This document shows, piece after piece, positions 5,537 to 49,639 of a stretch of DNA of 64,000 bases (its first letter is position 1; each line of letters opens with the position of its first letter). The translations under genes and the position numbers were made by a program. The notes below the pieces were generated by a model, which ran no database searches, was not told the DNA's origin, and saw only the letters and a list, made by a program, of their open reading frames with translations. The stretch lies in the IMG/VR virus record IMGVR_UViG_3300037424_000495, positions 1 to 64,000 of that record; one strand, written 5' to 3'. This DNA comes from a virus. Lineage: Duplodnaviria; Heunggongvirae; Uroviricota; Caudoviricetes.

Positions 5537-6118
5537 ATGAACGACACTATTCAATTTCAACAACGAGCGAATTGTGAGTTGATTCGCCCGATTCCACAAT
5601 CTGCTGACCAACTTCAGTGTCGCGGTCGCTTCCAAGTGGAGCACTGGCGGGATGGAAAACTGATTGGGACGCATAGCATCCGCAATGCTGTCACGAACGA
5701 GGGGAAAAATAAACTCTTGGACGTGATGTTTCACGGTGTGACAGCCATCGGTACTTGGTATGTGCTGCTGGTAGATGGAGCCGGAACGCCGACTTTGGCC
5801 GCAGGCGACACTTACGCACAGATCAACGGTACAAATGGCTGGGACGAGTTTACGACTTATACTGAGTCCACTCGTCAAGAATGGACTGAAGGGGCGGCAG
5901 CGTCGCAATCGATTACGAATGCCAGTCCACTTGTCTTTAATATAAGTGGCTCAGGCAGTGTTTATGGTCTTGGCGTTGTTGGCGGCGGTTCGACTCCGTC
6001 AACAAAGAATGATGCAGCCGGCGGTGGTTCGCTCTGGGCGGCTGCACAGTTTTCGAGTGGCACTGTTTCAGTGCTTAATGGAGACCAATTAAAGGTGACG
6101 TACACCGTCAACGCTTAA
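5537..6118 (+). CDS. tail structural protein (hypothetical)
   Basis: ATG after AAAGAGGA RBS; Gly/Ser-rich C-terminus; sits between TMP and fibre-like genes. Confidence 0.5.
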   Translation: MNDTIQFQQRANCELIRPIPQSADQLQCRGRFQVEHWRDGKLIGTHSIRNAVTNEGKNKLLDVMFHGVTAIGTWYVLLVDGAGTPTLAAGDTYAQINGTNGWDEFTTYTESTRQEWTEGAAASQSITNASPLVFNISGSGSVYGLGVVGGGSTPSTKNDAAGGGSLWAAAQFSSGTVSVLNGDQLKVTYTVNA

Positions 6119-8300: not shown

Positions 8301-10541
8301 ATGGACCCGATTCGCATTACACAGCAGTTAGTGTCGGCCTTGCAAGACCTCGTGACTAATCGCCGTGTGGCACAAGAGTCCGTGGAGATTGCAGGGGATG
8401 CACCGATAGGTGGTAATGCGCGCATATCGCAGCAGGCTATTGAAGTTTTAGCTGATCCTATCGGGATATTTACAGCCAATGTTACAGACTCGCTTTCATT
8501 GAGTCACCAGGCTAGACTGACGACAGTGATTGTGAATGGTGTGCATTCTTTGAGTGTTACACACCAAGCAACGCAGAATCTTGTTCGTGAGGCGTCAGCA
8601 TCTAGCAATATCTCCTTGACAGACATTGCTGAAGGCGGAAGAATTCTTTCGGGCGATGTTACAGATACGTTGACTTTGGCACATGTGGCAACTGTTACGG
8701 CAGTCAAAGTCATAGTTGATACGCTTTCACTGTCTGATTTGGCTTCAGGCGAAATTATCAAGCTAGCCAATCATACGTTGGTTATCACCCATGAAGCGAC
8801 GGTCTCGAATGTATTTGAGCGTTTAGCAGTAGATACTTTGACGCCGGTCGATGAGGCAATTACTGCTTACGCTAAACGACTCAATGCAATCAGCAGTCTA
8901 GAAATTGTTGATGTTGCGTCGGGTGAATGTATAAAACCTATTTCGCATACGTTAACGATATCGCATACGGCTCAATTAGAATTAGTTCGACGTAGCTCGG
9001 ATACAATTTCATTAAATGATACAGCTAGTGTGGTGACAGTTTATGCCCGATCTGTTACAGAAGAGACTGTGTCTTTAGGGCATCAAGCGGCGTTTCTCGG
9101 TGAATTTGGCCGAGTTACGTCAGATACATTGACACTTAATGAATTGGTGGCCGGGGATCATTGTCGCGTTGTTACTAGTGTATTGACATTGGATGACATA
9201 GCAAGTGTCGATCTAGTACGATTAGCATCTGATACTTTAAGTCTATCTCAGACAGTCGAGTCAAATTGGATATTGACACGACGCCGGGCCGAGTTGTTAA
9301 ACGTAACACATTCTGCGATTGCTACACTTGTTCACACGTATGTAGCAGATTCAACCATTGTGTTAACTCAGCAAGCTGTCGTTAGCGTTGCTAAAGTCGT
9401 GGCGGATACGCTAACATTGATGCAAGTTGCGACTGTGGATAACGTCCGACAAGCGTCTGATGAATTAACAATTACACAAGTAGCGAGTGCGTCCAATACT
9501 AGGTTGGCAGCCTACGATGATTTGATTGGTTTGAATCATGTAGCCATAGTGGGTTTTGTTAAACAAGTATCAGCCGCAAGCACCCTAAATATACGCGAGA
9601 AAGCACGCTCAGGAATTGAAATCGGGGTTGCATCAGATCAGCTACAAGAATTGCATTATAATTATGATCCAGTAACGGGTGAGTTGACACCTTATTACAT
9701 TGGATTGCAAGACCGGGCGGATGTAGCTGTAATTCGGTACGCACCTTATCCAGCTATTGACATTGTATCACTGTCTGATAAATCTCTCGGTGTTTTGCTT
9801 CACGCGGACGCAAAGCCAGGTGATGGAAGTGATACATTAAATTTATCGCACACGGCTGTGGGTGAACAGTGGCCCTTTTTCCGGGGCGGTCAACAAGCAG
9901 CTAATAATTTGATTGTGACTCAAACTGCCGACGTATTGTTGGTGCGTTTGGCAAGCCATACGTTAGCTTTAACGCAATCGGCAGTGGTTGCAATTGTTCA
10001 TGCGACTTTACCAATTGTCGATACCCTACAATTTAGACATTCAGTTGGCTTCGTTCTGATTTCAGCAGATGCTACTCATCAATATCATCCGTTTATCGGT
10101 GAAGGCGATGGATTAACACCTTCTGCAAATTGTCCGACGCCGGTGGCGGGTATCGGTGCATGTAGGTTATGTTATCCTGTCAGCCATCCGACTGAGTCTA
10201 TAATTTTACGTAGCCCAGAGTTCAGCAACAGAGATCGGTTGCAGATGAATCGTATTAGCCGCGAGACGCGAGGCGGCACATTGATTGTGTTTGCGGATGC
10301 AATCTGGCCGAAGATTCAGACTTTGGCTCTAACATTCAGTGGTTTAACACGCACGCAAGCACAAGAGTATTTGCTTTTTGTGAAGGAACATCTTGGCCTT
10401 GAAGTTGGTTTTGTAGATTGGGAGGGATTCTATTGGAAAGGAGTAATTATGAATCCGTCGGAGCCGGCAGTCCAGGACAGTAAATCTATTTTCACTGTCA
10501 GTTTTGAGTTTGAATGTGAAACTGCAACTTGGGAGCCGTAG
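8301..10541 (+). CDS. repeat-rich tail protein with ~25 copies of a ~20-aa repeat (xDTLTLxHxAxVxxVxxV)
   Basis: Periodic motifs DSLSLSHQA / DTLTLAHVATV / DTLSLSDLA / HTLVITHEATV seen in the translation; globular C-terminal domain. Confidence 0.6.
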   Translation: MDPIRITQQLVSALQDLVTNRRVAQESVEIAGDAPIGGNARISQQAIEVLADPIGIFTANVTDSLSLSHQARLTTVIVNGVHSLSVTHQATQNLVREASASSNISLTDIAEGGRILSGDVTDTLTLAHVATVTAVKVIVDTLSLSDLASGEIIKLANHTLVITHEATVSNVFERLAVDTLTPVDEAITAYAKRLNAISSLEIVDVASGECIKPISHTLTISHTAQLELVRRSSDTISLNDTASVVTVYARSVTEETVSLGHQAAFLGEFGRVTSDTLTLNELVAGDHCRVVTSVLTLDDIASVDLVRLASDTLSLSQTVESNWILTRRRAELLNVTHSAIATLVHTYVADSTIVLTQQAVVSVAKVVADTLTLMQVATVDNVRQASDELTITQVASASNTRLAAYDDLIGLNHVAIVGFVKQVSAASTLNIREKARSGIEIGVASDQLQELHYNYDPVTGELTPYYIGLQDRADVAVIRYAPYPAIDIVSLSDKSLGVLLHADAKPGDGSDTLNLSHTAVGEQWPFFRGGQQAANNLIVTQTADVLLVRLASHTLALTQSAVVAIVHATLPIVDTLQFRHSVGFVLISADATHQYHPFIGEGDGLTPSANCPTPVAGIGACRLCYPVSHPTESIILRSPEFSNRDRLQMNRISRETRGGTLIVFADAIWPKIQTLALTFSGLTRTQAQEYLLFVKEHLGLEVGFVDWEGFYWKGVIMNPSEPAVQDSKSIFTVSFEFECETATWEP

Positions 10542-10954: not shown

Positions 10955-13900
10955 TGCGCAATATATCTTCCGCTGGCTTGGCGAAACTGGCAACACGAAA
11001 CGGTATCGAACCCATCACCATCGTTGAGGTGGATTGGGTCAATGGGCATACGCGCACTTACGCCGATCGCGCTCTCACTACTGCCCTTAGTGAGATTCCC
11101 GGTAAAATTATCGAAGTCGGTGACATGGATAATGTTATCAATGTGTCTGATAACAATTCATCCCAATCCTTGAATGTAACGCTTGACGATACAGACGGCA
11201 CTATCAAGGCGGTTTTTGACAATCAGGATATTCATAAACGCAGTGCGCGCGTCTATCAGTATTTCGAGGGTCTTGACCTTGCAGACAAGTTTTTACTGTT
11301 CGCAGGCAAGGTAAGTTCACCGATTACATGGAATGAGCGTGACCGTACTGTCAAGTTTACGATTATTTCGCAATTGGAAGACCGGGAAATTGGCTTCAGT
11401 GCTGAAGAGGGGCAATTTCCTTATTTACCGGCGGATTTAGTTGGTAAGCCGTGGCCGATGATTTTTGGCACAGTTCAAGATTCACCTGCCTTACAAGTCA
11501 ATCATGCGGTGCAAGGCACCACGTTGACGGGCGTCGGGATAATTGCCGGGCAAGAATACTACTCTGATTTTCCAATCTATAACAACGGATCAGACCAAGA
11601 TAGCAATCTTGGCGCAGGGCTGGCAAATATCTCAGCCCAGATTAGTGTCTTATGGTGTGCGCACGCTTGTGCCAGTCAGATAGGTGACACTGGCAAAACG
11701 CGCGGATACATGGATCAGATAAATGAGTTAGAGGCTCAGCGCTCAAATATGGTGAATCAAGCCTCATCAAGTCAAGCTTGTGTACAGTGGCAAAGGGCGA
11801 AACAATTGGCCGACGCAAACGCCAAGGGGCTTGGATCAAATCCGATTAAAGTTATTGGCGGTGAAGATTTTCCACAGGATACGCCGATTATCATCGATAT
11901 TAACGGTGCTTGGTTCTGGGGGCATTTTCATGGGCAAGATTTTTATGTCACAAGTAGGTATAGTGAAGACTTAGCTGAGCAAGCTGCGAATGCAAATAAT
12001 GAACAGACCGACGATTGCCCGTATAATTCTGGCGGCGGCGGTGGAAGTATACAAGAGTATGACTATAAGATTGACGCATCTTGTAACTGTTCAGGCGTGG
12101 AAATGGACACGTGTTGGTGCCGGCAGCACGGCTGGATTATTACCACGGGTAGTGGTAGCACAAACAAGAAATCTGATAATCCAATTTTGCAGCAATTCTG
12201 GGCTGATGCTGGCGCTACTGTCAGGATGCACAGCGACGAACCTATTACCTACATAGTTTCAATTGTGCCGGGTACGGTTTTGGCCGTCAAAGCGTATAAA
12301 CAGTTTGACGGTGAGCGCCGATTGATTGCCGTGCCTAATAATCTGTACCGTGTGGAGACTAGAGTTTACGGGTCAATCACGGCGGTTCAAATTGTATTTA
12401 ACAAACCGTTAAGCACAGTCACGGATCAAGGGTGGAGTGACGATATCTACGTCACTTTCCAATCAAGTGTAGGCCCGGATACTGTCAACATTCTCAAGTA
12501 TCTAATTACTAATTACACAGACTTGACATGGGATAACACCAGTTTCGACCATGTTCAAACAAAGTTGACACCGTTCCCGGCAAATTTTCCAATCTTAGAG
12601 CGAAAGAATACGCTGCAAGTTCTGCAAGAGATTGCATTCCAGGCCCGATGTGCTATTTGGCTTGACAACGGCGTGTTTTCTATGAAGTATTTGCCTGAAG
12701 AGCCAACAGCCGATTCGACAATTACCGTGAGCGACTTGGACGCCGATGCTGGCGTGGAAGTCGAATTGACAAGCACGGAAGACCTTGTAACCAAGATGAA
12801 AGTCTCTTGGCGGGTAAGTTGGGCACCCGGGGCGACAGACCGGGATAAAGACAAGTCTGAAAAGACGATGATTTTGCGGCACAATATCACGCGGTACGGG
12901 ACTCAAGAAGAGGAGTTTGATTGGTACATCTATAATCAGCCGGATGTAATCTACAAAGCGGCAACCTTTTGGCTGATTCGGAAATCGAATACATGGAAAC
13001 GAATCAAGTTTAAGACTTTCCTGCAAAAGTTAAACTTGGAGACGTTTGACACGGTAACATTGAATGTTTCCAGTTACGTTGCTAACAGCGATATAAAAGC
13101 GATTGTTGAACAAGCAAATTATAATTCGGCAGATAACACGGTCGATTTTCAATGCTTGGTTCCAGTCCGTGCCGGCGAGATGACACAATATGTGTATTTC
13201 TGGCCGAGTGCTTTGCCACAATCCGTGGCATGGCCGCCCGCAAACGCTGTTGCCAGTAACGACGCCGGCGGCGGTGGAATCGGAATGGGCGCTACCGGTG
13301 ATTTACCGATTGGTGACACGTCTGAAATAGATGGGAGTGATGTTGTATGGGTCGGCGGTCCGAATGTTGTTTTCAGGGCGCGAAGCGATTGGGGAGACCG
13401 GCGGCCGACGGATGTTGGATTCTCTGCCCAGCAAACTATCAATCCAGCTAACTACGCGGAATTGGACGCAAAGCCTAAACCATATCTCAATCTGCGAACC
13501 TATACGGCAGAGCCATCAAAGCCATATATTCCTGCGCCATTGGCAGGGGCTTTCACTATAGATATTGCTAAAACAATTGTTGTTGACTCGGATGAAGACA
13601 ATAATGTACACACACATTTTAAATCTTTTTTCTCACGAATCAATGACAATGGTCGTTTGGTGATGCGGGATGATGCCCGTATTGGTGATGTTGATAAAAC
13701 GAAGGAAGGTAGTGCGGAGGATTTAATCTATGTAACGTCTGCTGGCGTGGTATGCCTCCAAGAAAATACTTATATTGCCAGCCAAGAACATGATACCAGC
13801 CAAGCTTGTTTATCTGATGCGTTAGTTATTGGTGATGCAACAGGCTACTTGTGCTTGGATGCTGACACGTTTATTGCCAATGGCGATGGAGAGGAAAATA

Positions 13901-15654: not shown

Positions 15655-16275
15655 CTAGTACATTCGCAGCAATGTGCGATAAGCTTCGGCACCCGCTAGA
15701 CAATCGGCTAAAGCGTCATGTGGATTTGAATTGATGACGCCTAATTTATTGCAAAGGGGTCCGAGACCGACACGCTCGAAGAGAGCGTTTTCACCCCGGG
15801 CAACGGCTCGGTCATTTAGTGTAATTGCGCAGAGCATCGAATCACGTGCGTGTGAGTGGAATACTTGATCCACCATTGCGACCCCAAGCCAAGCTTTCAA
15901 CATTGACGACTCGAAAGCCCAGTTGTGGGCGAGCGGGACAAGACAGCGTTTGAAAGGTAGGTGTAAGTTTTCAAACCATTCAACGAGCCAATCTTTTACC
16001 TTGTCTTGTGTTGGAGCGTGTAGCATCAACTCGGCCATAGGAATCTTGTGTTTTTGCCGTGCTTGTTCAGATTCACGCTCTGGATGCTCTGGTCGAATGT
16101 GTGTGTAGAATGGACGCACACCTTCGTGTGGCTTAAAGTCGGAGTCTAATGGGACCACGGCAATCTGAATAATTTCGTGATACCCTGGTTGGACGCCGGT
16201 TGTTTCAAGGTCGATGGCGGCAAGGAGATTGCCGCGCATTGTAGCGAGACTGGAATACGTTTTGACACTGGACAT
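15655..16275 (-). CDS. DnaQ-like 3'-5' exonuclease (DEDDh)
   Basis: Exo I motif LETTGV, Exo II HNWAFESSML, Exo III HDALADCLAGAEAY (H-x4-D). Confidence 0.7.
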   Translation of the reverse strand: MSSVKTYSSLATMRGNLLAAIDLETTGVQPGYHEIIQIAVVPLDSDFKPHEGVRPFYTHIRPEHPERESEQARQKHKIPMAELMLHAPTQDKVKDWLVEWFENLHLPFKRCLVPLAHNWAFESSMLKAWLGVAMVDQVFHSHARDSMLCAITLNDRAVARGENALFERVGLGPLCNKLGVINSNPHDALADCLAGAEAYRTLLRMY

Positions 16276-16344: not shown

Positions 16345-16797
16345 TTAAGCAGCTTTGCGGATTTTCCGTTTGGCGTTTTTTGTGGGTTTGCGAGATAGCT
16401 TACGGGCCATCTTCTTCTTGCTTCTGGGGACTGGCTCGTAGTTCGGCATGTCGTTTAACTCTGCCAGCAATACGCCTCGTTCAATCATCTCTTCGTAATG
16501 GATCAGAGCCATCGCATTGAACATGATAGCAGCCAGATGGTCTTCATCTTTTTTGCCTTGCTGGTATTTCATCAGGTGGCGTTTGAGAGACGCCACGCAC
16601 CGTGAGAAGGGCATTCCTTTCTCCCAGTTGCGTTCAGCGTATTTTCTAGCACCTAAGAGCAGCCAATGACCTTGACGTTCCTCGGCGAACGGTGAAATTA
16701 AATCAGGGCGAGGTTTATCGTCAGCCGTGTCGCGGATAGCTCGGTTCTCACCAAAAGATTGACGTTTACCATTATCAACCATACTGTATTTAGACAT
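16345..16797 (-). CDS. dATP/dGTP diphosphohydrolase N-terminal-domain-like phage protein
   Basis: Pattern ARKYAERNWEKGMPFSRCVASLKRHLMKYQQGKKDEDHLAAIMFNAMAL recalls the phage dATP/dGTP pyrophosphohydrolase domain; recalled from memory, not searched. Confidence 0.45.
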   Translation of the reverse strand: MSKYSMVDNGKRQSFGENRAIRDTADDKPRPDLISPFAEERQGHWLLLGARKYAERNWEKGMPFSRCVASLKRHLMKYQQGKKDEDHLAAIMFNAMALIHYEEMIERGVLLAELNDMPNYEPVPRSKKKMARKLSRKPTKNAKRKIRKAA

Positions 16798-17002
16798 TCT
16801 TTTCTTCCTCTTCAGGGTTCTGAGATGCAGTTTCTATGAGGTCGCCGTCATATTTGTCTGCGAATGCTCGCGGATTTTTCGGGCAGTTATTGGTTGGAAA
16901 TTCACGCACTAGTTCTGCTTGTAGGATCGAGCGTGTGAGATAGCCAGTGGTGCGGTAGACTCGAAGAGTCATGAGTCGGCTCCTTCCCTGTTGATTTTCC
17001 AA
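16790..17002 (-). CDS. small hypothetical protein
   Basis: ORF in track; overlaps neighbouring genes by a few nt. Confidence 0.3.
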   Translation of the reverse strand: MENQQGRSRLMTLRVYRTTGYLTRSILQAELVREFPTNNCPKNPRAFADKYDGDLIETASQNPEEEEKNV

Positions 17003-19695
17003 GCGAGGCCGGATACATAGCGTTTATTACCTGTGCCAACGACGAGTGGGTAGGTTAAAGGCATGTTTCTTTGCACATGGATTTTTGTCCAACTATGTTT
17101 TTCAGCCGGTGCAACTTGTTCATAGAAGCGTATGAAAAAATCTTTGAAGCTAATTTCTTTTGCGTCGGCTATGCGATCACAGTATTCGTCTATAAACACT
17201 TCTAATAAATTACGATTTACGCTTTCGGCTTGTCGTTTACTTTCAGTTGTGACAACCGGAATACGAAGTCGATCCATGACAGGGGGCAGTTCCAAGTGCA
17301 TTAAAGTGTAGAGAAAATGCGGAGCCTCTTTTTCTAATTCAATTTCCATCTTGGATTTAGCAATGATTTGCTCGGACAACAAATCAGGGACGTTAATGAC
17401 AGCAATGCGGGTGTCCCCTGGAAAAATAGGACAATTTTTCCGGCTGTTAGCTGTCTGCACCCAGTGGGTTGAATTTGGTTGTTCATACGCATCGTGTCGC
17501 ATTTTGCGTATCGTGATTGTGCGACCCGTTACCCATGTTTTGATTTTGGCGTGCGCACCCGGTGATTTGGAAATATCTTTTTCTTCAATCGCGCAGATAA
17601 TGGCTCCGGCTAGTTCGCCGTTGAAATCGTTGTTACTTGTTAAAGCGTGGTCAGCTTGAACTACACCTTTAGTGACTAGTATTTTTAGACTTTCAAAGAA
17701 AATACTTTTGCCACAGTTTTCTGTGCCAAATAGAAATAAATATGGTGTAGGCTCAAAAGGACAGCGGAAAGCACATGCCGTCCAAGCTCTTAAGTAATCT
17801 GCACCAGTTCGGATACCAGCACGTTGTGCCCACGCTAAATCTTTTAACGCGGATGTCAATTCAGTGCCGATATGCTCATAGATTTTGTCCCAGTGTGGGT
17901 GATAAGGAACTTCGTCATCACCTAATTCTATAGGTGCAAATCGGAATTGAGCCGCATCTATGTTCCACTGGCGATCACCAGGGTACTCCTCACGAAACGG
18001 CAAATTTACTAGTCGCCAAGACTGCCAGCCTGCACCGCCCATGACGCTTTCTGCGTCCGCTTTGGGTAGACCAAGATTTTGCAACATCATTTTGACTTGT
18101 CCGGCCGGTTGTCGGAGCCAGTCTTTGTTCTGCTTTGTAACCCAGCCAGAATGTTCGAGATTGGCAGACACTAGACAACGAACGACACTGTCATATTTTC
18201 CGATTGTGTCGTCTGCTTCATCATTTTGATCTATCTTCACGTCGAAGATGCGGACCCATTTGCCTGTTTTCTCCAGCCAGCCGGGGAGGGTAACATTATT
18301 CTTCGTGTCTTCTTTTGTTCGTTCAACTTGTGCGATTAACCGACCGTCTTTATGCGATTTAAGTGTGATTTTTCTTTCGTGGACCGTGGTAGGGTCTAAA
18401 TCAAGTTTCTGTCCGATTGCGTCAGCCGCTTTTATCGCATTGTTGATGTCTGTAAAAACGAAGCCACCGCCCTCTTCCTCTATACCCTCGTGCATTTTGC
18501 AGGCCGAGGCTAGCGTGGGGTAACGATTAAAATAGCAGGTAGTCCAGCCATCGTCACTCTGAGTCCAAGTGTCAGCCTCATTGATTCCCGGTGAAAAACG
18601 AAAGACTCGCCACCCGCCATTTGTTAACGGAAAAAGGAAACAATTGGGCGAGCCTTTATCATGCCCCTCAGAAATTGTTTTGAAGATGCCAATAAGATGG
18701 AGTTCTTTACGCGAGGTATCCAGTAGTTGCTGTAATGCGTGTGTGTGTGTTTGGAGTAAGTGATGGTCAGCTATCCACAGTGTTGTGTAACCTGATCGCA
18801 TCAAGGCTTCAATTTGAGCCTTATGGCTGTCGTCCAATGGAATCATTTTTCGGCCAGATGCCAAAGTCTCGAACGGGTCTTGGTCATCTTCGGTAATTTG
18901 GTTGACACGGATTTTATTGCGGCGACCTTTAACAACTTCGATGTGATCTTTCCAATTCAGTGGGAGATCGACCATAGACAACCGCTTACTTGCAGACTTG
19001 ATAATTTCCAAACCGTGATTTTCGGCAGTCATTTTTCGATGCCATATCCACATAACGTGCCCACAGGCGTCGATATGTGAAGCAAAATCGAAGTTAACTT
19101 CCGCAGACATCATTCCCAGAATACATCTGGCTAACGCAGCGTGTTCGGTGTGATTTTCACTTGGGATACCTTCATCATCTAAGTAGACGTACAAATGGAT
19201 ACCGCCGCCGCCGGTTGAGCGGCGCACCTCGACATAGGGCAGCGCACAGGCGGCTTCTTGGACCTTTGTTAATTGTTCGTCGTCAATTCCAATTCCCTTT
19301 GCGTGTCCTGTGATAGAGTCGAAATCATAGGCAAAATGCCGTGAACGACGGGCCTCCCAGTCCCATCCTGTCATGCCAATACCTTCTGCATAAACATCGA
19401 GTGGAAATGATAAGGAATAGTCGTTGAAAGTTGGCTCGGTATCAGCTTTTTTGGGGATGCGGACGTTGAACCATTCGTTAATCCCGTCCGACCAAGTAGA
19501 TTGTTTACCTCCGACTGGTTCGCCATTGTCTGGAGCCACTTTTAATTGGGTCTCCATATTCTTTCCCCAGCGTGCGACGAGATCAGCGTTGGCTGAAGTC
19601 TTTCTTGCATCCAAGAAGCTACGCAGGGCATCAGTGACTTTGGGCATTTGGTGATCTCTCGTCTTACAGAGCGTGTAAACAGTCTGAGGGCGCAT
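16969..19695 (-). CDS. bifunctional primase-polymerase (prim-pol) / SF3 (D5-like) helicase
   Basis: 908 aa; N-terminal GGGGIHLYVYLDDEG prim-pol-like motif; C-terminal Walker A FGTENCGKS and Walker B-like AIEEKD. Confidence 0.7.
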   Translation of the reverse strand: MRPQTVYTLCKTRDHQMPKVTDALRSFLDARKTSANADLVARWGKNMETQLKVAPDNGEPVGGKQSTWSDGINEWFNVRIPKKADTEPTFNDYSLSFPLDVYAEGIGMTGWDWEARRSRHFAYDFDSITGHAKGIGIDDEQLTKVQEAACALPYVEVRRSTGGGGIHLYVYLDDEGIPSENHTEHAALARCILGMMSAEVNFDFASHIDACGHVMWIWHRKMTAENHGLEIIKSASKRLSMVDLPLNWKDHIEVVKGRRNKIRVNQITEDDQDPFETLASGRKMIPLDDSHKAQIEALMRSGYTTLWIADHHLLQTHTHALQQLLDTSRKELHLIGIFKTISEGHDKGSPNCFLFPLTNGGWRVFRFSPGINEADTWTQSDDGWTTCYFNRYPTLASACKMHEGIEEEGGGFVFTDINNAIKAADAIGQKLDLDPTTVHERKITLKSHKDGRLIAQVERTKEDTKNNVTLPGWLEKTGKWVRIFDVKIDQNDEADDTIGKYDSVVRCLVSANLEHSGWVTKQNKDWLRQPAGQVKMMLQNLGLPKADAESVMGGAGWQSWRLVNLPFREEYPGDRQWNIDAAQFRFAPIELGDDEVPYHPHWDKIYEHIGTELTSALKDLAWAQRAGIRTGADYLRAWTACAFRCPFEPTPYLFLFGTENCGKSIFFESLKILVTKGVVQADHALTSNNDFNGELAGAIICAIEEKDISKSPGAHAKIKTWVTGRTITIRKMRHDAYEQPNSTHWVQTANSRKNCPIFPGDTRIAVINVPDLLSEQIIAKSKMEIELEKEAPHFLYTLMHLELPPVMDRLRIPVVTTESKRQAESVNRNLLEVFIDEYCDRIADAKEISFKDFFIRFYEQVAPAEKHSWTKIHVQRNMPLTYPLVVGTGNKRYVSGLAWKINREGADS

Positions 19696-19711
19696 CCCTC
19701 GTGCCAGAATT

Positions 19712-19790
19712 TGCTACCTAGACCTAACGAAAAAAACGTGTATTTGTTCAAAGAATTCTTGAATAAAGACTGGGATTTTTCGTTAGGTCT
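19712..19790. promoter_or_regulatory. divergent intergenic control region with a perfect 19-bp inverted repeat plus an inner EcoRI-centred near-palindrome
   Basis: ACCTAGACCTAACGAAAAA ... TTTTTCGTTAGGTCTAGGT with ~43-nt spacer containing TTCAAAGAATTCTTGAA; lies between the divergently oriented primase and ParB genes. Confidence 0.5.
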
Positions 19791-19819
19791 AGGTGCCAAG
19801 ATAAAAAGCGTGAATACCT

Positions 19820-20731
19820 ATGCAAGATGATACTCGTAACATTCCGCTGGGGCAGATTATTGAGCCGTGGGTGGTTCTACGCTTGGTAAATCGATCCTCA
19901 GTGGAATATATCGAGTTACGTGATTCTTTGGCAGATAAAGGCTTCTTCAATTCAATTTGTGTCCGGCCATCTGCCAAGAAACCGGACAAATATGAAGTTG
20001 TTGACGGTCTCTATCGTTTTACAGCAGCGACCGAGTTGGAATTACCTGTAGTACCGTGCATCGTGAAACATAACCTCACTGATGAGGATGTTTTAGCTGC
20101 ACAGATTCAAGCCAATGTGTTACGGCCGGAGACGACGCCGGTAGAGTATGCACGACAGTTACGAAAGATCATGGACTCAAAGCCGGACACTATGACTCTG
20201 GCTGAATTGAGTGTACGGATTCATAAGAATCCAGAGTGGATCAGCAGTCAACTGTCGCTGTTGAATCTTATCAAGATGGCGCAGAATGCGGTGTCACACG
20301 GTGAAATTCCATTGGCGTCTGCGTATGCGCTCGCTCGTGTGCCAAAGAGTCAACAGCGAGTTTACGTGGACATGGCAAAGATGATGGCTGCGAAAGAATT
20401 CGTTGCTGTCGTGAATACGCATGTCCGAAAGTATCGTGAAAATGTAAAACGTGGTATTTGGTTTGAGTTTCAATCTGAAGTTGAACCAGTGCCGCATCTT
20501 CGCCGTTTGAACGACATTCTCGCGGAGTATCAAAACCACAATTTAGGTGGGCTTACGCTAACGACTGCAAATTGTAAGACACCTGTAGATGCCTGGTATC
20601 TCGCATTGCAGTGGGTTTTACACTTGGACGAGGAGAGCGTCAAAGAACAACGTGAAAAAATCTTGCAACGGCAAAAGACCGCTATTGTAGAGCAAATTGA
20701 AGAGGAGGATGAGCCATGTGACACGTCGTAA
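19820..20731 (+). CDS. ParB-like nuclease/partition domain protein
   Basis: N-terminal ParB/Srx fold pattern ...ICVRP...KYEVVDGLYRFTAATELELPVVPCIV. Confidence 0.6.
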   Translation: MQDDTRNIPLGQIIEPWVVLRLVNRSSVEYIELRDSLADKGFFNSICVRPSAKKPDKYEVVDGLYRFTAATELELPVVPCIVKHNLTDEDVLAAQIQANVLRPETTPVEYARQLRKIMDSKPDTMTLAELSVRIHKNPEWISSQLSLLNLIKMAQNAVSHGEIPLASAYALARVPKSQQRVYVDMAKMMAAKEFVAVVNTHVRKYRENVKRGIWFEFQSEVEPVPHLRRLNDILAEYQNHNLGGLTLTTANCKTPVDAWYLALQWVLHLDEESVKEQREKILQRQKTAIVEQIEEEDEPCDTS

Positions 20732-30895: not shown

Positions 30896-31686
30896 AAACA
30901 TTTGCAATTAGTGATTTGCATTGTGGTGACGGAGGTCCGCGTGACAACTTCGCTTGCGGCAACCATGAGAAGGATTTGCTTTCTTTCTTGGACATGGTCG
31001 AGGACGAAGGGGGCAAACTAGTCGTTGGTGGTGACTTATTTGAGTTGTGGCAAAGCAACATAAGTAAAGTCATCACTAAGCGAATTTGTCTTTTGGATCG
31101 GCTGGCGGCGATGGGTGCAATCTATGTCCTGGGGAATCATGATGCCGATCTTCGTTACTTCAAAAACTACGGCCGGCAATGGTTGAATCATCCGTTCTTT
31201 CGCACAATGTGTGATGAATACTTGCTGAATGTCAACGATACATTATTTTATTTCATTCACGGACATCAAGCAGACGCATATTGTGCGGGCGACACACCCG
31301 GCCTCGGACGCATCACTGCTATATACTCGGGACTTGCTGAGGATAAAAACGGTAGCCCGATGTTAGACAAGTATCGAACGGTTGAAGACAAGGTAGTTGG
31401 TCGCCTTGAAAAGCTGGTTAGCTTGTGGAATAGATTTCGGGGTAAACCAGATCGTTTCACAGAAATCAATCGTGCGTTACGGTATCAAGTGGCTAAATAT
31501 GCAGCACATGCAGTAATCTGCGGACACACACATTTTCCCGGCCAGTACGGTGGTTGGTTGTATAACACTGGGACATGGGCGGAACGAACTAATAGTTTCG
31601 TTCGCATTGATGACGACGGTTCAATCAATGTTTTTGATTGGGCCAATGGACGCGCGACTTTGAATCATACTACGTTGCCAATGTAA
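30892..31686 (+). CDS. calcineurin-like metallophosphoesterase
   Basis: Motifs DLHCGDGG, GGDLFELW, LGNHDAD, FIHGHQ, ICGHTHFP. Confidence 0.7.
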   Translation: MKTFAISDLHCGDGGPRDNFACGNHEKDLLSFLDMVEDEGGKLVVGGDLFELWQSNISKVITKRICLLDRLAAMGAIYVLGNHDADLRYFKNYGRQWLNHPFFRTMCDEYLLNVNDTLFYFIHGHQADAYCAGDTPGLGRITAIYSGLAEDKNGSPMLDKYRTVEDKVVGRLEKLVSLWNRFRGKPDRFTEINRALRYQVAKYAAHAVICGHTHFPGQYGGWLYNTGTWAERTNSFVRIDDDGSINVFDWANGRATLNHTTLPM

Positions 31687-31691
31687 TTGTA

Positions 31692-32534
31692 ATGGTAATG
31701 AATCTTGAACCAATTCCACAATACTCCGCGTACCCGTTGCCGGTAAGCAGCGTTTATTATGACTCGGATTTTAATTGCCGGGCTGAGTTCACGATGCAAT
31801 CGGTTAAGGATTTAGCGGACAGTGTCGCGGAGAATGGTCTTCAGTTTCCTCTTGTCGTGCAACCCTGGAAAAAGCAGTCTGGTTATAGCTATCGTCTACT
31901 CGCAGGTCACAGACGGTTCAAGGCGTTGACAGTCTTTTTACATTGGGACACCGTGCCGAGTATCATTCGTAAAAGACTCACTGACCATCAAGCCCGTTTA
32001 ATAAATGTTACCGAGAATCTGGAACGCAAGGATTTGAATATCTGGGAAGAGGCGCGTGCTTTGGAACGACTCTACCCTAAAGGCGTGACGTTGCGACAGG
32101 CGTCGAAGGAACTGAAACAATCAACAGATTGGGTGTTTGTTCGTTTACGGTTGCTGCGTATGCCGCCTGAAGTGCAACAGAAAGCAGCGGCCGGTTTATT
32201 GTCTCAAACAAATTTAAACGCGATAGCGGGTTTAAAAAAACCGGAAGATCAAATTCTAGCCGCCGGTAAGATTGCTGCAGCGAGAATTGCTGGGAAAGGG
32301 AAGCGGCTCCCAGGCGTCGAAAGAGTGTTTAAACGCCGCACCGCCACGGTGCGTTCTAAGGAAGAAATCAATCGGATGGTTGAACGAATGTTGTCAGCCG
32401 GCATCGATGGATTGGCTCCACGGGTTGGGGTGTGGTGTGCTGGCAACATATCAGATGAAGATTTATGGGCAGACGTTGAAAGTGCTCCAAAATTTCATCC
32501 GCCTATTGATCCAACTGTAGAGGAAGAAACATGA
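31692..32534 (+). CDS. ParB-like nuclease domain protein (second copy)
   Basis: YRLLAGHRRFKALTV ParB N-terminal motif. Confidence 0.6.
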   Translation: MVMNLEPIPQYSAYPLPVSSVYYDSDFNCRAEFTMQSVKDLADSVAENGLQFPLVVQPWKKQSGYSYRLLAGHRRFKALTVFLHWDTVPSIIRKRLTDHQARLINVTENLERKDLNIWEEARALERLYPKGVTLRQASKELKQSTDWVFVRLRLLRMPPEVQQKAAAGLLSQTNLNAIAGLKKPEDQILAAGKIAAARIAGKGKRLPGVERVFKRRTATVRSKEEINRMVERMLSAGIDGLAPRVGVWCAGNISDEDLWADVESAPKFHPPIDPTVEEET

Positions 32535-37013: not shown

Positions 37014-37421
37014 ATGGCAAGAATCAAACGACCAAAACACGGCCCCGAGTGGTTCATTCAAAGAGACTTGATCGCCCTTCTCAAGGCCCGTGGGTGGCAT
37101 GTCGAACGGACGCATGGCAATTTGTATCAGACAGGTTTCCCTGACTTGTATGTAATGCACAAGAAATGGGGAACTCGGTGGATCGACTGCAAACAACCAA
37201 AATACTATTCGTTTACGAAGGCTCAGAGGATCAAATGGCCACTGTGGGAGGCGATGGGCACTCCAATCTGGATTCTTACTGCTGCGACTCAGGAAGAGTA
37301 TGACAAGTTGATGGGGCCTCCGAACTGGCGAGATTACGTGAAGGATAGTTGGAAGATTCCAACTCAAGATGAGATCGACAAACTACTTGATGAGATAGAT
37401 GCCGGCGACGACTTCTTATAA
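37014..37421 (+). CDS. VRR-NUC domain nuclease
   Basis: Pattern EWFIQRDLIALLKARGWHVERTH...GFPDLYVMHKK...WIDCKQ matches the VRR-NUC PD-(D/E)xK layout. Confidence 0.65.
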   Translation: MARIKRPKHGPEWFIQRDLIALLKARGWHVERTHGNLYQTGFPDLYVMHKKWGTRWIDCKQPKYYSFTKAQRIKWPLWEAMGTPIWILTAATQEEYDKLMGPPNWRDYVKDSWKIPTQDEIDKLLDEIDAGDDFL

Positions 37422-37911
37422 CAAGAATCCAGACCATTACCGCGCTAAGTCGCGGGAGTATTATGCTGCGCATCGTAAAGAACGATTGGCTTATGCCAGA
37501 CGCTATCAGAAAGCCAACAAGAAACTTTTACGTGAGAAAAGCCGTGTTTACCGTGAAGCCAATCGTGACATAATAAATGCGAAACAGCGTGCTTATCGAG
37601 AGAGCAATCTTGAAAAGCGGCGTGCGTATTCACGCGAATACGGGCGTGCCCATCCACGGCGGGCACGTAATTATGGGTTGTGGTATCGACACGGGCTGTC
37701 CGTAGCTGATTATCGTGCCTTGCTTAAGAGGCAGAAACATTGTTGTGCCGTGTGCGGAAAGAAACCTCGCAAATATGTGGTTGATCATGACCATAAGACT
37801 GGGAAGATTCGTGGTCTGCTGTGTAGCTTTTGCAATTCGCTGCTGGGATTTGCAAAGGATAACCGCAGTGTCTTGAAAGCAGCCATCCACTATTTAAGCA
37901 AAACTGGCTGA
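37399..37911 (+). CDS. HNH endonuclease, recombination endonuclease VII-like
   Basis: CAVCGKKPRKYVVDHDHKTGKIRGLLCSFCNSLLG signature; basic N-terminus with repeats. Confidence 0.75.
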   Translation: MPATTSYNKNPDHYRAKSREYYAAHRKERLAYARRYQKANKKLLREKSRVYREANRDIINAKQRAYRESNLEKRRAYSREYGRAHPRRARNYGLWYRHGLSVADYRALLKRQKHCCAVCGKKPRKYVVDHDHKTGKIRGLLCSFCNSLLGFAKDNRSVLKAAIHYLSKTG

Positions 37912-43717: not shown

Positions 43718-44092
43718 TCACTCCCGGCGCTTCGCGAGTATAGGGACACCTTCGGAGAGAAGCCGGTCTAATTCCGTCCGGGGTATTTTCCAGCGACCAC
43801 TTGAATCCTTGACACCTTTGATATCGCCCTGAATGCACAGTTGGCGGATAGTCCAAGCAGACCGACTAAGATAAACGCCGGCTGCGGCTGCATTCAAGTA
43901 GACAGCCCTCGGTTTAGGCACATCACTTACATGCGAGAGGATTGTGTCATTTAACTGTTCAACATGTTTAATATGTTGCATCTGTTCAAGAAGAACATTG
44001 TTAAAAGTGTCATAAACAGTGTCACGCACAGTGTCACGAATAATTTGTCTTAATAAATCGTCAATAGTTTGTGTAGTCATATTAGCCTCCAT
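43718..44092 (-). CDS. excisionase/AlpA-like HTH DNA-binding protein
   Basis: RAVYLNAAAAGVYLSRSAWTIRQLCIQGDIKGVKDSSGRWKIPRTELDRLL helix-turn-helix (Xis family); the lone minus-strand gene in a + strand block. Confidence 0.6.
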   Translation of the reverse strand: MEANMTTQTIDDLLRQIIRDTVRDTVYDTFNNVLLEQMQHIKHVEQLNDTILSHVSDVPKPRAVYLNAAAAGVYLSRSAWTIRQLCIQGDIKGVKDSSGRWKIPRTELDRLLSEGVPILAKRRE

Positions 44093-44163
44093 GTCATTTA
44101 TTGTAATCGCTTCCTAAATTCTGTAAAGCTAAATTCTGAGAGCGTTTAAACGCGCTGCATAAC

Positions 44164-44892
44164 ATGACAAAAAGAAATCCAAAACAAGACGGCAGTAATT
44201 TATTCGATTGTATACCGCAGATCGGCCCCTGTCCAATCGGCTGCAACGCTTGCTTCTACAACCGGCCCGGTGCATTCTATCTCCCAATCGATCAACCCAG
44301 CATCCCAACGTCTGAGGAAGTAGGTGATGGAATTGTGCGAATGAATTGCGGCAACGATAGCAATAATCAACGCGATCTTGTAATTGAGACTGCTAAGCAA
44401 TACAAGCACGCTTTCTTCAACACCAGTATTCCACGTTTTGACTTTCCTGGCCCTGTCGTTTGGACCGCAAATCCTTGTGAGGAGCAATATGTGCGCATCC
44501 CGCCTGCATTGCAATGCGAGATTCCCAGCAACTTGATGTTTATTCGTTTGCGAGTATCAAGCACAAATCTTTTTCGCATTAAGTTGGCTGCCGAATGGTT
44601 CAACGCAAAACAAGTGCCAGTTGTCTTAACATTCATGGCTTATTATGAGACGGAGCCAATGGTGCCAACTGACGTACTCACCGCTGTCGGTGGACCGTGC
44701 TACGAATGGAAAGTACGTCACATCAATTCATATTTCTGTCCTACCCCTGCGTTCATTCGGTATGTCATGAGTCTCTTTAAAGGCAACCGCCTTGTATCAT
44801 ACTGTGGCAGCCTCGAAGGATCATACTGCCGACTGTGTCTAAACTGCGAAACATATTACCACCAGGCAGTTAAACGAATGAAGGGCGAGTAA
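44164..44892 (+). CDS. hypothetical protein
   Basis: ORF in track. Confidence 0.45.
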   Translation: MTKRNPKQDGSNLFDCIPQIGPCPIGCNACFYNRPGAFYLPIDQPSIPTSEEVGDGIVRMNCGNDSNNQRDLVIETAKQYKHAFFNTSIPRFDFPGPVVWTANPCEEQYVRIPPALQCEIPSNLMFIRLRVSSTNLFRIKLAAEWFNAKQVPVVLTFMAYYETEPMVPTDVLTAVGGPCYEWKVRHINSYFCPTPAFIRYVMSLFKGNRLVSYCGSLEGSYCRLCLNCETYYHQAVKRMKGE

Positions 44893-48020: not shown

Positions 48021-48668
48021 ATGTCAGAAGTCACAATCACCGTTGAACGTATTGAGGCCATTAAACCGCATCCAAATGCGGACAAAATGGAAATTGCCGA
48101 AGTAGCCGGCACTCAAACCCTTGTTGGCAAAGACCAATTTAAGGTTGGTGATTTAGCAGTCTATTTTCCACCTGACATTTTAATCCCCGGAGAAGTCTCC
48201 GAGGCTCTAGGTGTCGCAAAATATCTCAAGACCGCTCTCTATGGCGGCTTGCGTGTGCCTTGTCGCGTGGCGGCTTGCCGACTACGTGGCGTGCCGAGCT
48301 ATGGCTTTGCTCAACCGTTGACGGTTTTGGGAACTGTTGATCTACGCCAGATTCATGTCGGCAAAGATGTAACTGAAACCTTTCGTGGCCTCAAGTACGA
48401 GCCAGTGGTTAAGGTTCAGCGTGGGCACGGTGGCGGCACAGGTGAAGTCTGGGGTGGCTTGGCTCCCGAACCAATTAACTTCCACCGTTACACTGACATT
48501 CAGCATTACCGCAAATACAGGCATTTGCTTGCGACAGAGACGCCAGTGCGCATAACCGAAAAAGTACACGGTTGCCTAATGTTCCAGGAACGTATCACAA
48601 TGGTAGACGGGTCCAAGAAAAAGATTGGACACACGTCCGCATTGGTGATTTTGTTCTTGGGGTTGTGA
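48021..48668 (+). CDS. RNA ligase N-terminal segment: tRNA-binding (Myf/EMAP-like) domain, motif I lysine, start of intein
   Basis: IKPHPNADKMEIAEV...VGDLAVYFPPD tRNA-binding fold; EKVHG (ligase motif I) followed by intein block A CLMFQERITMVDGSKKKI; ORF stops shortly after an A5 run. Confidence 0.6.
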   Translation: MSEVTITVERIEAIKPHPNADKMEIAEVAGTQTLVGKDQFKVGDLAVYFPPDILIPGEVSEALGVAKYLKTALYGGLRVPCRVAACRLRGVPSYGFAQPLTVLGTVDLRQIHVGKDVTETFRGLKYEPVVKVQRGHGGGTGEVWGGLAPEPINFHRYTDIQHYRKYRHLLATETPVRITEKVHGCLMFQERITMVDGSKKKIGHTSALVILFLGL

Positions 48669-49639
48669 ATGGACAAGTCGTTCCGAGCCAAGTATTAAAC
48701 GTCTTTAATAACGGTCGCAGCGACCGCTGGCTCAAGGTGACATTCACACGGCGACTTGCGGGTCGGGGCGGCAACAATGTTGGCACAATACATTGCACAC
48801 CGAATCACTGCTTCTGGACGCCGGATAAAAATGACTACACACCAGCCAGTGAGTTGCGTGTTGGAAATCTCGTCAATTTACTTCGCTCTGACACCGATCT
48901 AACCCCAGTCCAGCACGCTATCTTGCCACCGACCGCAACACATTACAAGCCGCTTCTAGTCTCGCAGCGTGTTGTCGCTATTGAAGAATACATTGCTCCA
49001 CGAGCAAACCGCTATGACATTGAAACCGAAACACATAATTACTTCGCTAATGGTGTTTTGACTCACAATTCTAATTCGCGCGTGGGGCTTCTGAAAGTTG
49101 ATGGCGAATGGCAATTTGTTGCCGGCTCCCATAAGACTGCCCGCAAGCAGATTGATCCTGAAGGGCGAGAATCCGTGTACTGGTCTCCACTTCAGGATTT
49201 TAATGTGTTGCGGATGCTTACCGATATGTGCAATGAAGCCAACGATATTATTCTATTCGGTGAGTTATACGGTCCTGGAGTTCAAGACTTAGACTATGGG
49301 ATTCCTGCCGGTGACATTGGTTGGCGGATGTTTGATATCACTGCGAATGGAGAATACTTGGACTGGGGTCTCATTGCATTCTTATCCATGCACTACGATG
49401 TGCCCACTGTTCCGCTGCTTTATTCAGGTCCATTCAAACGGGAGTTGATCGACGAATTGACTTGTGGCCCGACGACTGTCGTCTCGGGGACCGAGATCAA
49501 ATCCAAATTCAAAGGTCGTGAAGGGATCGTCATTACACCATTGGTAGAAGAGACATGCAGCATTGGCCGTCTAATTCTAAAGTCTGTCAGCGCGGATTAT
49601 TTAGACAGGAAGGGAGCAGAAGACAATGGTGACATCTAA
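48572..49639 (+). CDS. remainder of the mini-intein plus the RNA ligase nucleotidyltransferase domain (Rnl2-like), in the -1 frame relative to the upstream segment
   Basis: Intein block B TPNHCFWT and C-terminal YDIETETHNYFANGVLTHN|S; extein motifs ILFGELYG (III), GWRMFDI (IV), KGREGIVIT (V), LILKSVSADY (VI). Confidence 0.6.
   Translation: MPNVPGTYHNGRRVQEKDWTHVRIGDFVLGVVNGQVVPSQVLNVFNNGRSDRWLKVTFTRRLAGRGGNNVGTIHCTPNHCFWTPDKNDYTPASELRVGNLVNLLRSDTDLTPVQHAILPPTATHYKPLLVSQRVVAIEEYIAPRANRYDIETETHNYFANGVLTHNSNSRVGLLKVDGEWQFVAGSHKTARKQIDPEGRESVYWSPLQDFNVLRMLTDMCNEANDIILFGELYGPGVQDLDYGIPAGDIGWRMFDITANGEYLDWGLIAFLSMHYDVPTVPLLYSGPFKRELIDELTCGPTTVVSGTEIKSKFKGREGIVITPLVEETCSIGRLILKSVSADYLDRKGAEDNGDI

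Follow-up and report, generated by a model that had tools for sequence, protein, structure and literature searches.

A covarying palindrome at the head of two divergent phage replication operons is a candidate shared control element

We analysed a 64,000-nucleotide (nt) stretch of DNA, hereafter the window, which covers positions 1 to 64,000 of the IMG/VR virus record IMGVR_UViG_3300037424_000495, and identified at about 19.7 kilobases (kb) a long inverted repeat between the gene for a 908-aa primase-helicase and a gene for a ParB-like protein (Table 1). The window is a tailed-phage genome with a tape-measure protein and tail genes, and two blocks of replication genes run away from the repeat in opposite directions. 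The leftward block is short and consists of the primase, a MazZ-like diphosphohydrolase and an RNase T-type exonuclease. The rightward block is long, serves replication and nucleotide metabolism, and includes the ParB-like gene, methylases, a helicase, an exonuclease, PolA, a ligase and endonuclease VII. The ParB-like gene is followed, in order, by a 246-amino-acid (aa) open reading frame (ORF), a 175-aa ORF, a methylase and a helicase, with PolA further along; an 882-aa ORF encodes a family A DNA polymerase. A first-pass annotation, made from the letters of the window alone, had placed the repeat between a minus-strand replication block and the ParB-like gene, and the identities of the flanking genes agree with this. 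We tentatively interpret the repeat as a control region shared by both operons.

Table 1. Features of the divergent primase/ParB junction, with positions in the window.
Feature	Position	Strand	Remarks
Primase-helicase gene	16969-19647	-	DUF5906; PHROG 'DNA primase'; first gene of the leftward operon; start at 19647 probable
Imperfect copy (10/12) of the 12-bp palindromic motif GCGTnTAnACGC	19671-19682	-	On the primase side
Small hairpin GAGGG-N5-CCCTC	19686-19700	-	In the presumed primase leader, directly after the left arm; variable equivalent in relatives; weak feature
Whole extended imperfect palindrome	19711-19799	none	89 nt; 41-nt arms, 80% complementary, by repeat finder
Left arm ACCTAGACCTAACGAAAAA	19716-19734	none	Reads TTTTTCGTTAGGTCTAGGT outward toward the primase gene; counterpart, by alignment, of the 5' arm in 50 distinct relatives
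Spacer	19735-19775	none	41 nt; two semi-complementary 'internal loop' segments around the inner palindrome
Inner 17-mer TTCAAAGAATTCTTGAA	19747-19763	none	Imperfect palindrome at the dyad centre
Core AAGAATTCTT of the inner palindrome	19751-19760	none	Perfect palindrome
Right arm TTTTTCGTTAGGTCTAGGT	19776-19794	none	Exact reverse complement of the left arm
Gene for ParB_N + HTH_ParB protein	19820-20731	+	303 aa; first gene of the rightward replication operon

The 19-bp inverted repeat is real and far beyond chance. Its two arms are exact reverse complements, as the first-pass annotation had reported, and no other perfect inverted repeat of at least 14 nt (spacer up to 350 nt) occurs within the 64-kb window. 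The spacer was shorter than the 43 nt given there, and the inner palindrome described with it is indeed present, although the 17-mer is imperfect and only its core is perfectly symmetrical. The centres of this core and of the outer arms (19755.5 and 19755) coincide within 1 nt. The spacer has a G+C content of about 32%, counted by eye, against about 47% for the window, and the right arm stops 25 nt short of the ParB-like start codon. Further copies of the half-site had been proposed as something to look for, and at up to 3 mismatches the window holds none besides the two arms, with 0.03 occurrences expected and 0 of 100 shuffles reaching two; nor were further copies of the 13-mer outer motif found beyond chance at up to 3 mismatches. 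Folded as single-stranded DNA, the intergenic region reaches -24.9 kcal/mol compared with -8.3 +/- 2.7 for shuffled sequences (z = -6.3; 0 of 200 shuffles as good). In addition, a covariance model of the element, R1, has its sole match in the window at 19706-19804 (76.2 bits on the plus strand and 64.2 bits on the minus strand). Two ORFs that cross the region, 19542-19799 (-) and 19648-19830 (+), had been called spurious and have no support as genes.

Relatives of this phage are abundant in IMG/VR, where 65 loci were reached via the primase and 80 via ParB, and they also occur in metagenome-assembled genomes of Planctomycetota; some of these lie inside megabase-sized contigs and are therefore taken to be integrated prophages. 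Among roughly 50,000 deposited phage genomes, by comparison, there was no close relative of the region or of PolA and there were two weak matches to the primase. The group comprises phages and prophages of Planctomycetota of ~60-150 kb and has no cultured relative. Roughly 100 loci of related phages and prophages share the layout of the window: at the head of their diverging primase-helicase and ParB-like operons they have a long and usually perfect inverted repeat, whose arms differ in sequence from phage to phage. A lack of conservation in related phages, which the first-pass annotation had named as part of what would speak against the feature, is not what we see: both position and architecture are kept. 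The sequence of the window's half-site is found in 0 of the first 65 relatives, even at up to 4 mismatches, although nearly all of these have a long inverted repeat in this position. Perfect repeats of at least 15 nt lie within 610 nt upstream of the rightward operon in 50 of 64 ParB-anchored loci, a density of 12.8 per 10 kb as opposed to about 0.1-0.3 per 10 kb elsewhere. Model R1 gives exactly one match per locus across 835 kb, comprising 50 distinct elements.

Within the clade of the window the layout is constant: 17-29 bp form the outer stem, ~9 semi-complementary nt follow on either side, and 7-9 bp form the inner stem, which closes a loop of 4-8 nt. The outer stem follows approximately the pattern (GAC)ACCTAyAC.......CCAAA, and the outer end of the right arm, ...TAGGTG, is the best-conserved part of the element, AGGTG being invariant in the alignment of relatives. 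The inner palindrome of the window is the counterpart of the covarying inner stem of these relatives, which reads TTTCCCA/TGGGAAA, TTTTCAG/CTGAAAA and others. The closest relative, L066, whose primase is 78% identical, retains ACCTAGACCTAAC but carries CCGGAAAA/TTTTCCGG in place of GAAAAA/TTTTTC and has a different inner hairpin. In more distant clades the entire intergenic region of 200-1000 nt is a nested mirror image, either with operator-like TGATTTGATT inverted pairs near both gene starts, seen most clearly in L039 and L050, or with arms that reach both ribosome-binding sites. In L039, L037, L042, L043 and L050 the TGATTTGATT inverted pairs surround a large A+T-rich central palindrome, and L050 has a very A+T-rich giant palindrome with 102-nt arms.

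The arms of these elements covary. In an alignment of 24 non-redundant elements, RNAalifold predicted 28 pairs, 19 of them with compensatory double changes. When a 30-pair structure was scored over the same 24 sequences, 96.0% of the cells were paired, compared with 76.4% in shuffles and 32-48% in slid controls; 19 of the 30 pairs were double-changed, and double-changed cells numbered 133 against 40 +/- 6 in shuffles (0 of 500 as high). In the larger set of 50 distinct sequences obtained with model R1, 1401 of 1494 cells are Watson-Crick pairs, and therefore arm positions that are free to vary between phages almost never differ between the two arms of one phage. The sequences thus display the compensatory covariation by which a conserved base-paired structure is recognised, with the caveat that close inverted DNA repeats may covary through template switching without any structural function. 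As ParB identity drops, the arms of different phages come to differ at 0.10, 0.25, 0.41 and 0.49 of their positions while complementarity is retained. The loop and spacer segments differ at 0.31-0.67 of positions and evolve almost neutrally. Since the arms change less than the loop segments they must be constrained, yet they show considerable turnover in which complementarity is never lost.

Arm identity depends on how the copies are placed, being 100% over 17-43 nt for inverted copies 32-120 nt apart, 76-100% for those 125-290 nt apart, and ~80% for direct copies 5.8 kb apart. Quasi-palindromes that are corrected by template switching during replication are reported to behave in the same way (PMC5941160, PMC8794818). 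The likeness to such template-switched repeats extends to perfect arms, multi-base compensatory changes, long persistence and a lower identity of distant or direct copies (PMC5941160, PMC8794818, PMC8604942), and an asymmetric composition of the pairs, which is also seen here, is said to be explicable by template switching (PMC8794818). Template switching is, however, a mutational mechanism and not a function, whereas the repeat described here occupies one fixed syntenic place in more than 100 genomes, so that selection must also keep it. The pairing of the arms may itself be under selection.

One pair of loci is especially informative on turnover. Between L119 (958-1055) and L126 (408-507) the ParB proteins are 94% identical (95% in the HTH region) and the flanking DNA on both sides is 92-95% identical. 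The palindromes nevertheless differ at 10 of 23 arm positions and at 3 of 7 inner-stem positions, each version being perfect in itself, and the divergence is confined to the ~90-nt element with sharp boundaries. A pattern of this kind suggests that a cassette was replaced here, or that alleles co-exist at this single site. The family as a whole is an unusually clean natural inverted repeat that stays perfect while its sequence turns over, with 50 versions and one cassette-like pair, and it should be useful for separating selection for pairing from homogenisation by template switching.

We also found that the element marks the heads of the operons. In relatives it lies 0-35 nt from the first rightward gene, even where ORFs separate it from the primase gene. 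With such insertions the gap between element and primase measures 207, 547, 315 or ~720 nt, and the insertions never fall between the element and the operon head. They lie downstream of the leader motif, so that the element, the small hairpin and the GCGTnTAnACGC motif all remain in place at the operon head. The first rightward gene itself is p123-like or p246 in some relatives, not ParB. Because the element keeps its place despite insertions and despite other first genes, it marks operon heads and not particular genes, and its standing at the head of both divergent operons whichever gene comes first is what would be expected of a bidirectional promoter/operator region. The extra ORFs between palindrome and primase were located in L012 (5453-6001), L009 (5793-6001), L013 (5685-6001) and L067 (5165-5827); the one in L012 encodes an HNH-type endonuclease (CHSCDNRLCVNPRHLF) and that in L067 is a 220-aa ORF.

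The two halves of the element are separable. Among the genomes found, locus L035 (contig IMGVR_UViG_3300028840_005768) alone has an inverted primase block, so that both operons are co-directional, and it amounts to a natural experiment in which the palindrome is taken apart. Here a sequence homologous to the arms, GGCGTAAAAyCTrCC...GCCTATAGTATG...GTATCGA, stands as a direct repeat ahead of the primase operon and of the ParB operon, at 5893-5940 and 11727-11775. Over their 48 nt the copies agree at ~80% of positions and share conserved blocks of 9, 12 and 7 nt; the 106-kb contig has exactly these two, 5.8 kb apart. The start codons follow a TATAGT box at a distance of 35-57 nt, no hairpin partner exists for either copy, and upstream of the primase copy there is a terminator. 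Judging from this single genome, each half can apparently stand alone upstream of its own operon. The nearest relative of L035, L159, has 29-nt arms that are 97% identical and 266 nt apart, with ~25-36 nt between each arm and a start codon. Arms in clades further away are 79-100% identical and lie 250-290 nt apart, each beside one gene start, and in L055 (5809-5995) and L087 (5801-5993) the mirror symmetry extends to both ribosome-binding sites. The ParB start codon of relatives falls between -3 and +34 nt from the end of the right arm, and in L101 the Shine-Dalgarno sequence GGAGGG straddles the arm end, which places the arm in the region where transcription and translation start.

The first-pass annotation had offered an operator, a parS-like centromere and an origin-associated site as candidate roles. 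That the repeat is a functional cis-element is now strongly supported, and among the roles offered an operator or promoter-type function fits best, while parS is unsupported and an origin is weakened. The reading that we favour, with some reserve, is a mirror-image promoter/operator/leader module that is kept symmetrical by hairpin-mediated copying, by selection for pairing, or by both. It builds on an element that stands at operon heads, occurs once per genome, covaries between its arms, changes independently of the ParB sequence and has separable halves. The palindrome would be a shared control region heading the two divergent replication operons, with the primase-helicase, MazZ-like and exonuclease genes under its control on the left and the ParB-like, methylase, helicase and PolA genes on the right. 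Each half would be a copy of one ~40-bp operon-head element, made up of a promoter/operator and the first leader bases and facing outward into its own operon, and transcription would start within it. The small palindrome at the dyad centre would probably be a shared site for a dimeric regulator. The close inverted copies would be homogenised by hairpin or template-switch copying, which would leave the arms identical within a phage while they turn over between phages. The Planctomycetota hosts and the several integrated prophage relatives lead us to expect a regulated early or replication switch, and the palindrome, which marks where both operons begin, offers the likeliest way into the question of how replication is switched on in these phages.

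This arrangement can be likened to the divergent promoter-operators of temperate phages and of regulator/target gene pairs, such as lambda OL/OR with PL/PR, 186 pR/pL and the tetR-tetA type. Shared features are a compact non-coding head of two divergent operons, dyad-symmetric sites, one copy per genome, a sequence that varies among related phages while the architecture is kept, and a prophage setting. Unlike those systems, the element has usually perfect arms of 17-43 nt, a 32-120-nt spacer with a second palindrome, and covariation at almost every arm position; it also has no repressor gene between or beside the sites, no recognisable sigma-70 hexamers, and it can be swapped without a protein gene.

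Several observations weigh against a promoter/operator module. No sigma-70-like -35/-10 pair was found in the intergenic region by a promoter scan, and none conserved was seen on manual inspection of the arms, spacer and flanks. The putative -10 sequence (TATAGG/TGTAGG) does not end in the T that is conserved at this position. The arms of about 8 lineages have the ParB start codon as their last 3 nt, so that the mRNA must either be leaderless or begin within the arm or upstream of it. Perfect identity over 17-43 nt is more than copies of a promoter alone would need, and such copies alone do not account for the G.T bias described below, although that bias comes partly from strand composition and from the GTG constraint on the ParB side. 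The palindromes of L119 and L126 appear to have been exchanged without any protein gene, which favours structure or generic host factors over a co-evolving binding protein. Finally, the TAAGGGTGT motif points outward in the clade of the window and apparently inward in L055 and L087, which the module does not account for. The literature on Planctomycetota phage promoters, leaderless mRNAs and the P4 immunity RNA yielded nothing directly usable.

Mismatches in the stems are distributed unequally between the strands. On the ParB-sense strand of the 50 elements, transition mismatches are far more often G.T than A.C (42 vs 6 cells; 37 vs 5 parsimony steps), whereas the other strand gives 5 G.U and 37 A.C cells. 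As RNA, the ParB-sense strand is the better folder in 22 of 29 elements. Changes in the left arm are confined to wobble-compatible transitions at two hot columns and the right arm is constant, and the orientation of the spacer asymmetry is conserved across the 50 distinct elements. The G.T bias would fit a plus-strand hairpin, formed either by RNA running toward ParB or by plus-strand DNA, but it is suggestive only. The plus strand is enriched in G and T at four-fold sites on both sides, with (T×G)/(C×A) at 1.4-2.8; arbitrary hairpins in the flanks show a similar excess of G.U; and the commonest asymmetric column involves a G that in one clade is a base of the ParB start codon (GTG). When the small primase-side hairpin was tested for the opposite G.U bias, the ParB-sense strand was found to fold better there too (31 vs 19).

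Strong covariation also fits an RNA, and a rightward transcript from the left of the palindrome could fold into a hairpin of ~85 nt that controls ParB translation or mRNA stability. It would have a lower stem of 19-29 bp, an internal loop, an upper stem of 7-9 bp and a terminal loop, with the ParB start on or beside the 3' strand of the lower stem, and might act as an RNase III substrate, as a stem masking the ribosome-binding site, or as a cis-antisense partner of an overlapping leftward transcript. The G.U bias and better folding of the ParB-sense strand, the wobble-compatible changes of the left arm, the constant orientation of the spacer asymmetry and the start codon at the foot of the stem in many lineages are consistent with such an RNA, and a cassette swap without a protein gene fits a self-contained pairing element. 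Known leader hairpins of phages and plasmids, such as the RNase III sites of T7, the P4 CI RNA in a primase-operon leader and CopA/CopT, likewise combine a hairpin of this kind and covarying stems with a site at the start of replication genes and a fast turnover of specificity, but here the fold is putative, Rfam offers no match, and L035 has no hairpin at all. Arms that lie 250-290 nt apart beside both gene starts in other clades are likewise unexplained by an mRNA leader hairpin. Moreover, no promoter is visible upstream of the left arm, where just 23-49 nt remain before the primase-leader motif, a perfect 20-29-bp stem that includes the start codon would block translation unless it were processed, and the strand composition, the G.U excess of flank hairpins and the start-codon G mean that the asymmetry is not clean evidence. 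No Rfam family scored above its gathering score; the only matches were microRNA-precursor models with 15-25 bits against the 39-140 required, as a generic hairpin shape would produce. We therefore consider RNA control of ParB possible but doubtful. We are just as hesitant about a wider version, in which the palindrome is a self-contained structure-based switch and its form as RNA hairpin or DNA cruciform, not its sequence, governs the expression or firing of both operons. Such a switch can be exchanged between phages as a ~90-nt cassette with no protein partner, and one possible form, by analogy with the P4 CI RNA or CopA/CopT, is a single-palindrome cis-antisense or hairpin device for immunity or copy control. 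If structure itself does regulate here, phage replication genes would have a control module of a new kind, one that works independently of proteins.

A role in replication was also considered, in which a cruciform or single-stranded DNA hairpin beside an initiator gene serves for loading or priming by the adjacent fused primase and superfamily 3 (SF3)-type helicase, which one gene encodes. The element adjoins the primase-helicase gene between divergent replication operons, its centre is A+T-rich, as are the giant palindromes of distant relatives such as L050, it is unique in each genome, and a strand-specific tolerance of G.T fits a hairpin on one DNA strand. The phage also encodes endonuclease VII (37399-37911, +), a resolvase of cruciforms and Holliday junctions that could cut the palindrome if it extrudes. 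Palindromic or hairpin origins used by SF3-helicase or primase-polymerase initiators, such as those of SV40 and papillomavirus, oriL/oriS of herpes simplex virus (HSV) and the stem-loop origin of plasmid pRN1, share the A+T-rich-centred palindrome beside an initiator gene and between divergent replication genes, and the ssi sites of plasmids are a further known analogue of a priming hairpin. Those origins differ from the present element in that it shows no skew switch, has no iterons, has separable halves, and carries arms uncoupled from the primase. Cumulative GC skew rises straight through 19.7 kb and peaks at ~43 kb, and at four-fold sites the plus strand has more G than C in the primase gene, which runs leftward, as well as in the ParB gene, which runs rightward; there is therefore no switch of strand polarity at the element, and a bidirectional origin is unlikely. 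The window's intergenic region contains neither direct-repeat iterons nor DnaA boxes, though distant relatives do have DnaA-box-like or iteron-like repeats in the corresponding region, among them L065, where three DnaA-box-like TTATCCACA copies lie as inverted repeats of alternating orientation at 5902-5975 between ParB and primase. In L035 a distance of 5.8 kb separates the halves, which face the same way and each head one operon, and insertions always separate the element from the primase gene and never from the operon head. Divergence of the primase does not predict the arms either: L066 (78%) has the same arm start, L067 (73%) and L001 (72%) have unrelated arms, and in L119 and L126 the primase coding sequence beside the element is ~92-95% identical while the palindrome is a different one. 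These points make a replication role improbable in our view. Less credible by far is a parS-like centromere or operator formed by the arms or the inner palindrome and bound by the adjacent ParB-like protein for partition or KorB-like silencing. Palindromic sites beside parB genes are the rule for ParABS and KorB systems, the neighbouring gene does encode ParB_N and HTH_ParB domains, and a dimeric HTH protein could plausibly bind the inner palindrome. Apart from this likeness to ParABS parS and the KorB operator OB, the element diverges from both. The parS consensus TGTTNCACGTGAAACA has one 3-mismatch match in the window, at 9295, against 3.0 by chance, and none near 19.7 kb; no ParA-type ATPase family was detected among the 47 distinct ORFs scanned; the site exists as a single copy per genome; and the protein has DGLYR (VVDGLYRF, judged by eye) at the position of the canonical GERRxRA CTP-binding box of ParB. 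The palindrome persists without an adjacent ParB gene in L056, L072 and L074, and, most tellingly, the near-identical ParB proteins of L119 and L126 stand beside different arms, so that site and protein do not co-vary.

Two further candidates were set aside. No intrinsic terminator is predicted at the repeat, which lies between diverging genes and has no T run after either of its arms. A pair of T7-type promoters was considered because the arm ends read TATAGGTG (TATAGG), but the scanned ORFs included neither an RNA polymerase nor a sigma gene, and just two copies exist.

On the primase side, the true start of the primase is probably the ATG at 19647 and not at 19695, because matches to relatives start only at residues 13-19. 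The stretch upstream is conserved as nucleotides, but its reading frame varies among relatives. Most relatives have the GCGTnTAnACGC motif in their primase leader, 23-49 nt (mostly 23-35) further out than the inverted repeat; it is non-coding, since loci differ in the frame in which it would be read. The motif may act near ribosome-binding sites, either as an operator or as a small RNA hairpin. Examples occur in L002 (5949-5960) and L014 (2144-2155 and 5973-5984), and the window holds a perfect copy, GCGTTTAAACGC, at 44142-44153. The motif is also found ~10 nt upstream of the helicase start codon in some relatives and, in the window, of the ORF at 44164-44892.

This perfect GCGTTTAAACGC copy sits in a second divergent junction, where a 124-aa HTH_17 gene (43718-44092, -) faces the ORF that starts at 44164 on the plus strand. 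The cumulative GC skew of the window peaks at this 43-44 kb junction, which could be a regulatory switch or a replication landmark. Among the neighbouring genes, the MazZ-like dATP/dGTP diphosphohydrolase (PF18909, E = 6.5e-20) at 16345-16797 (-) lies directly downstream of the primase gene and is followed by the RNase T-type exonuclease at 15655-16275 (-). MazZ is a hallmark of phages that substitute 2-aminoadenine for adenine; no PurZ-like gene was seen among the scanned ORFs of the window. A second gene with ParB_N and HTH_ParB domains, encoding 298 aa, is located at 31638-32534 (+), in the same rightward block and 12 kb downstream of the first. In addition, an RNA ligase ORF at 48572-49639 (+) has a sub-threshold match to an intein-splicing domain, which may indicate an intein.

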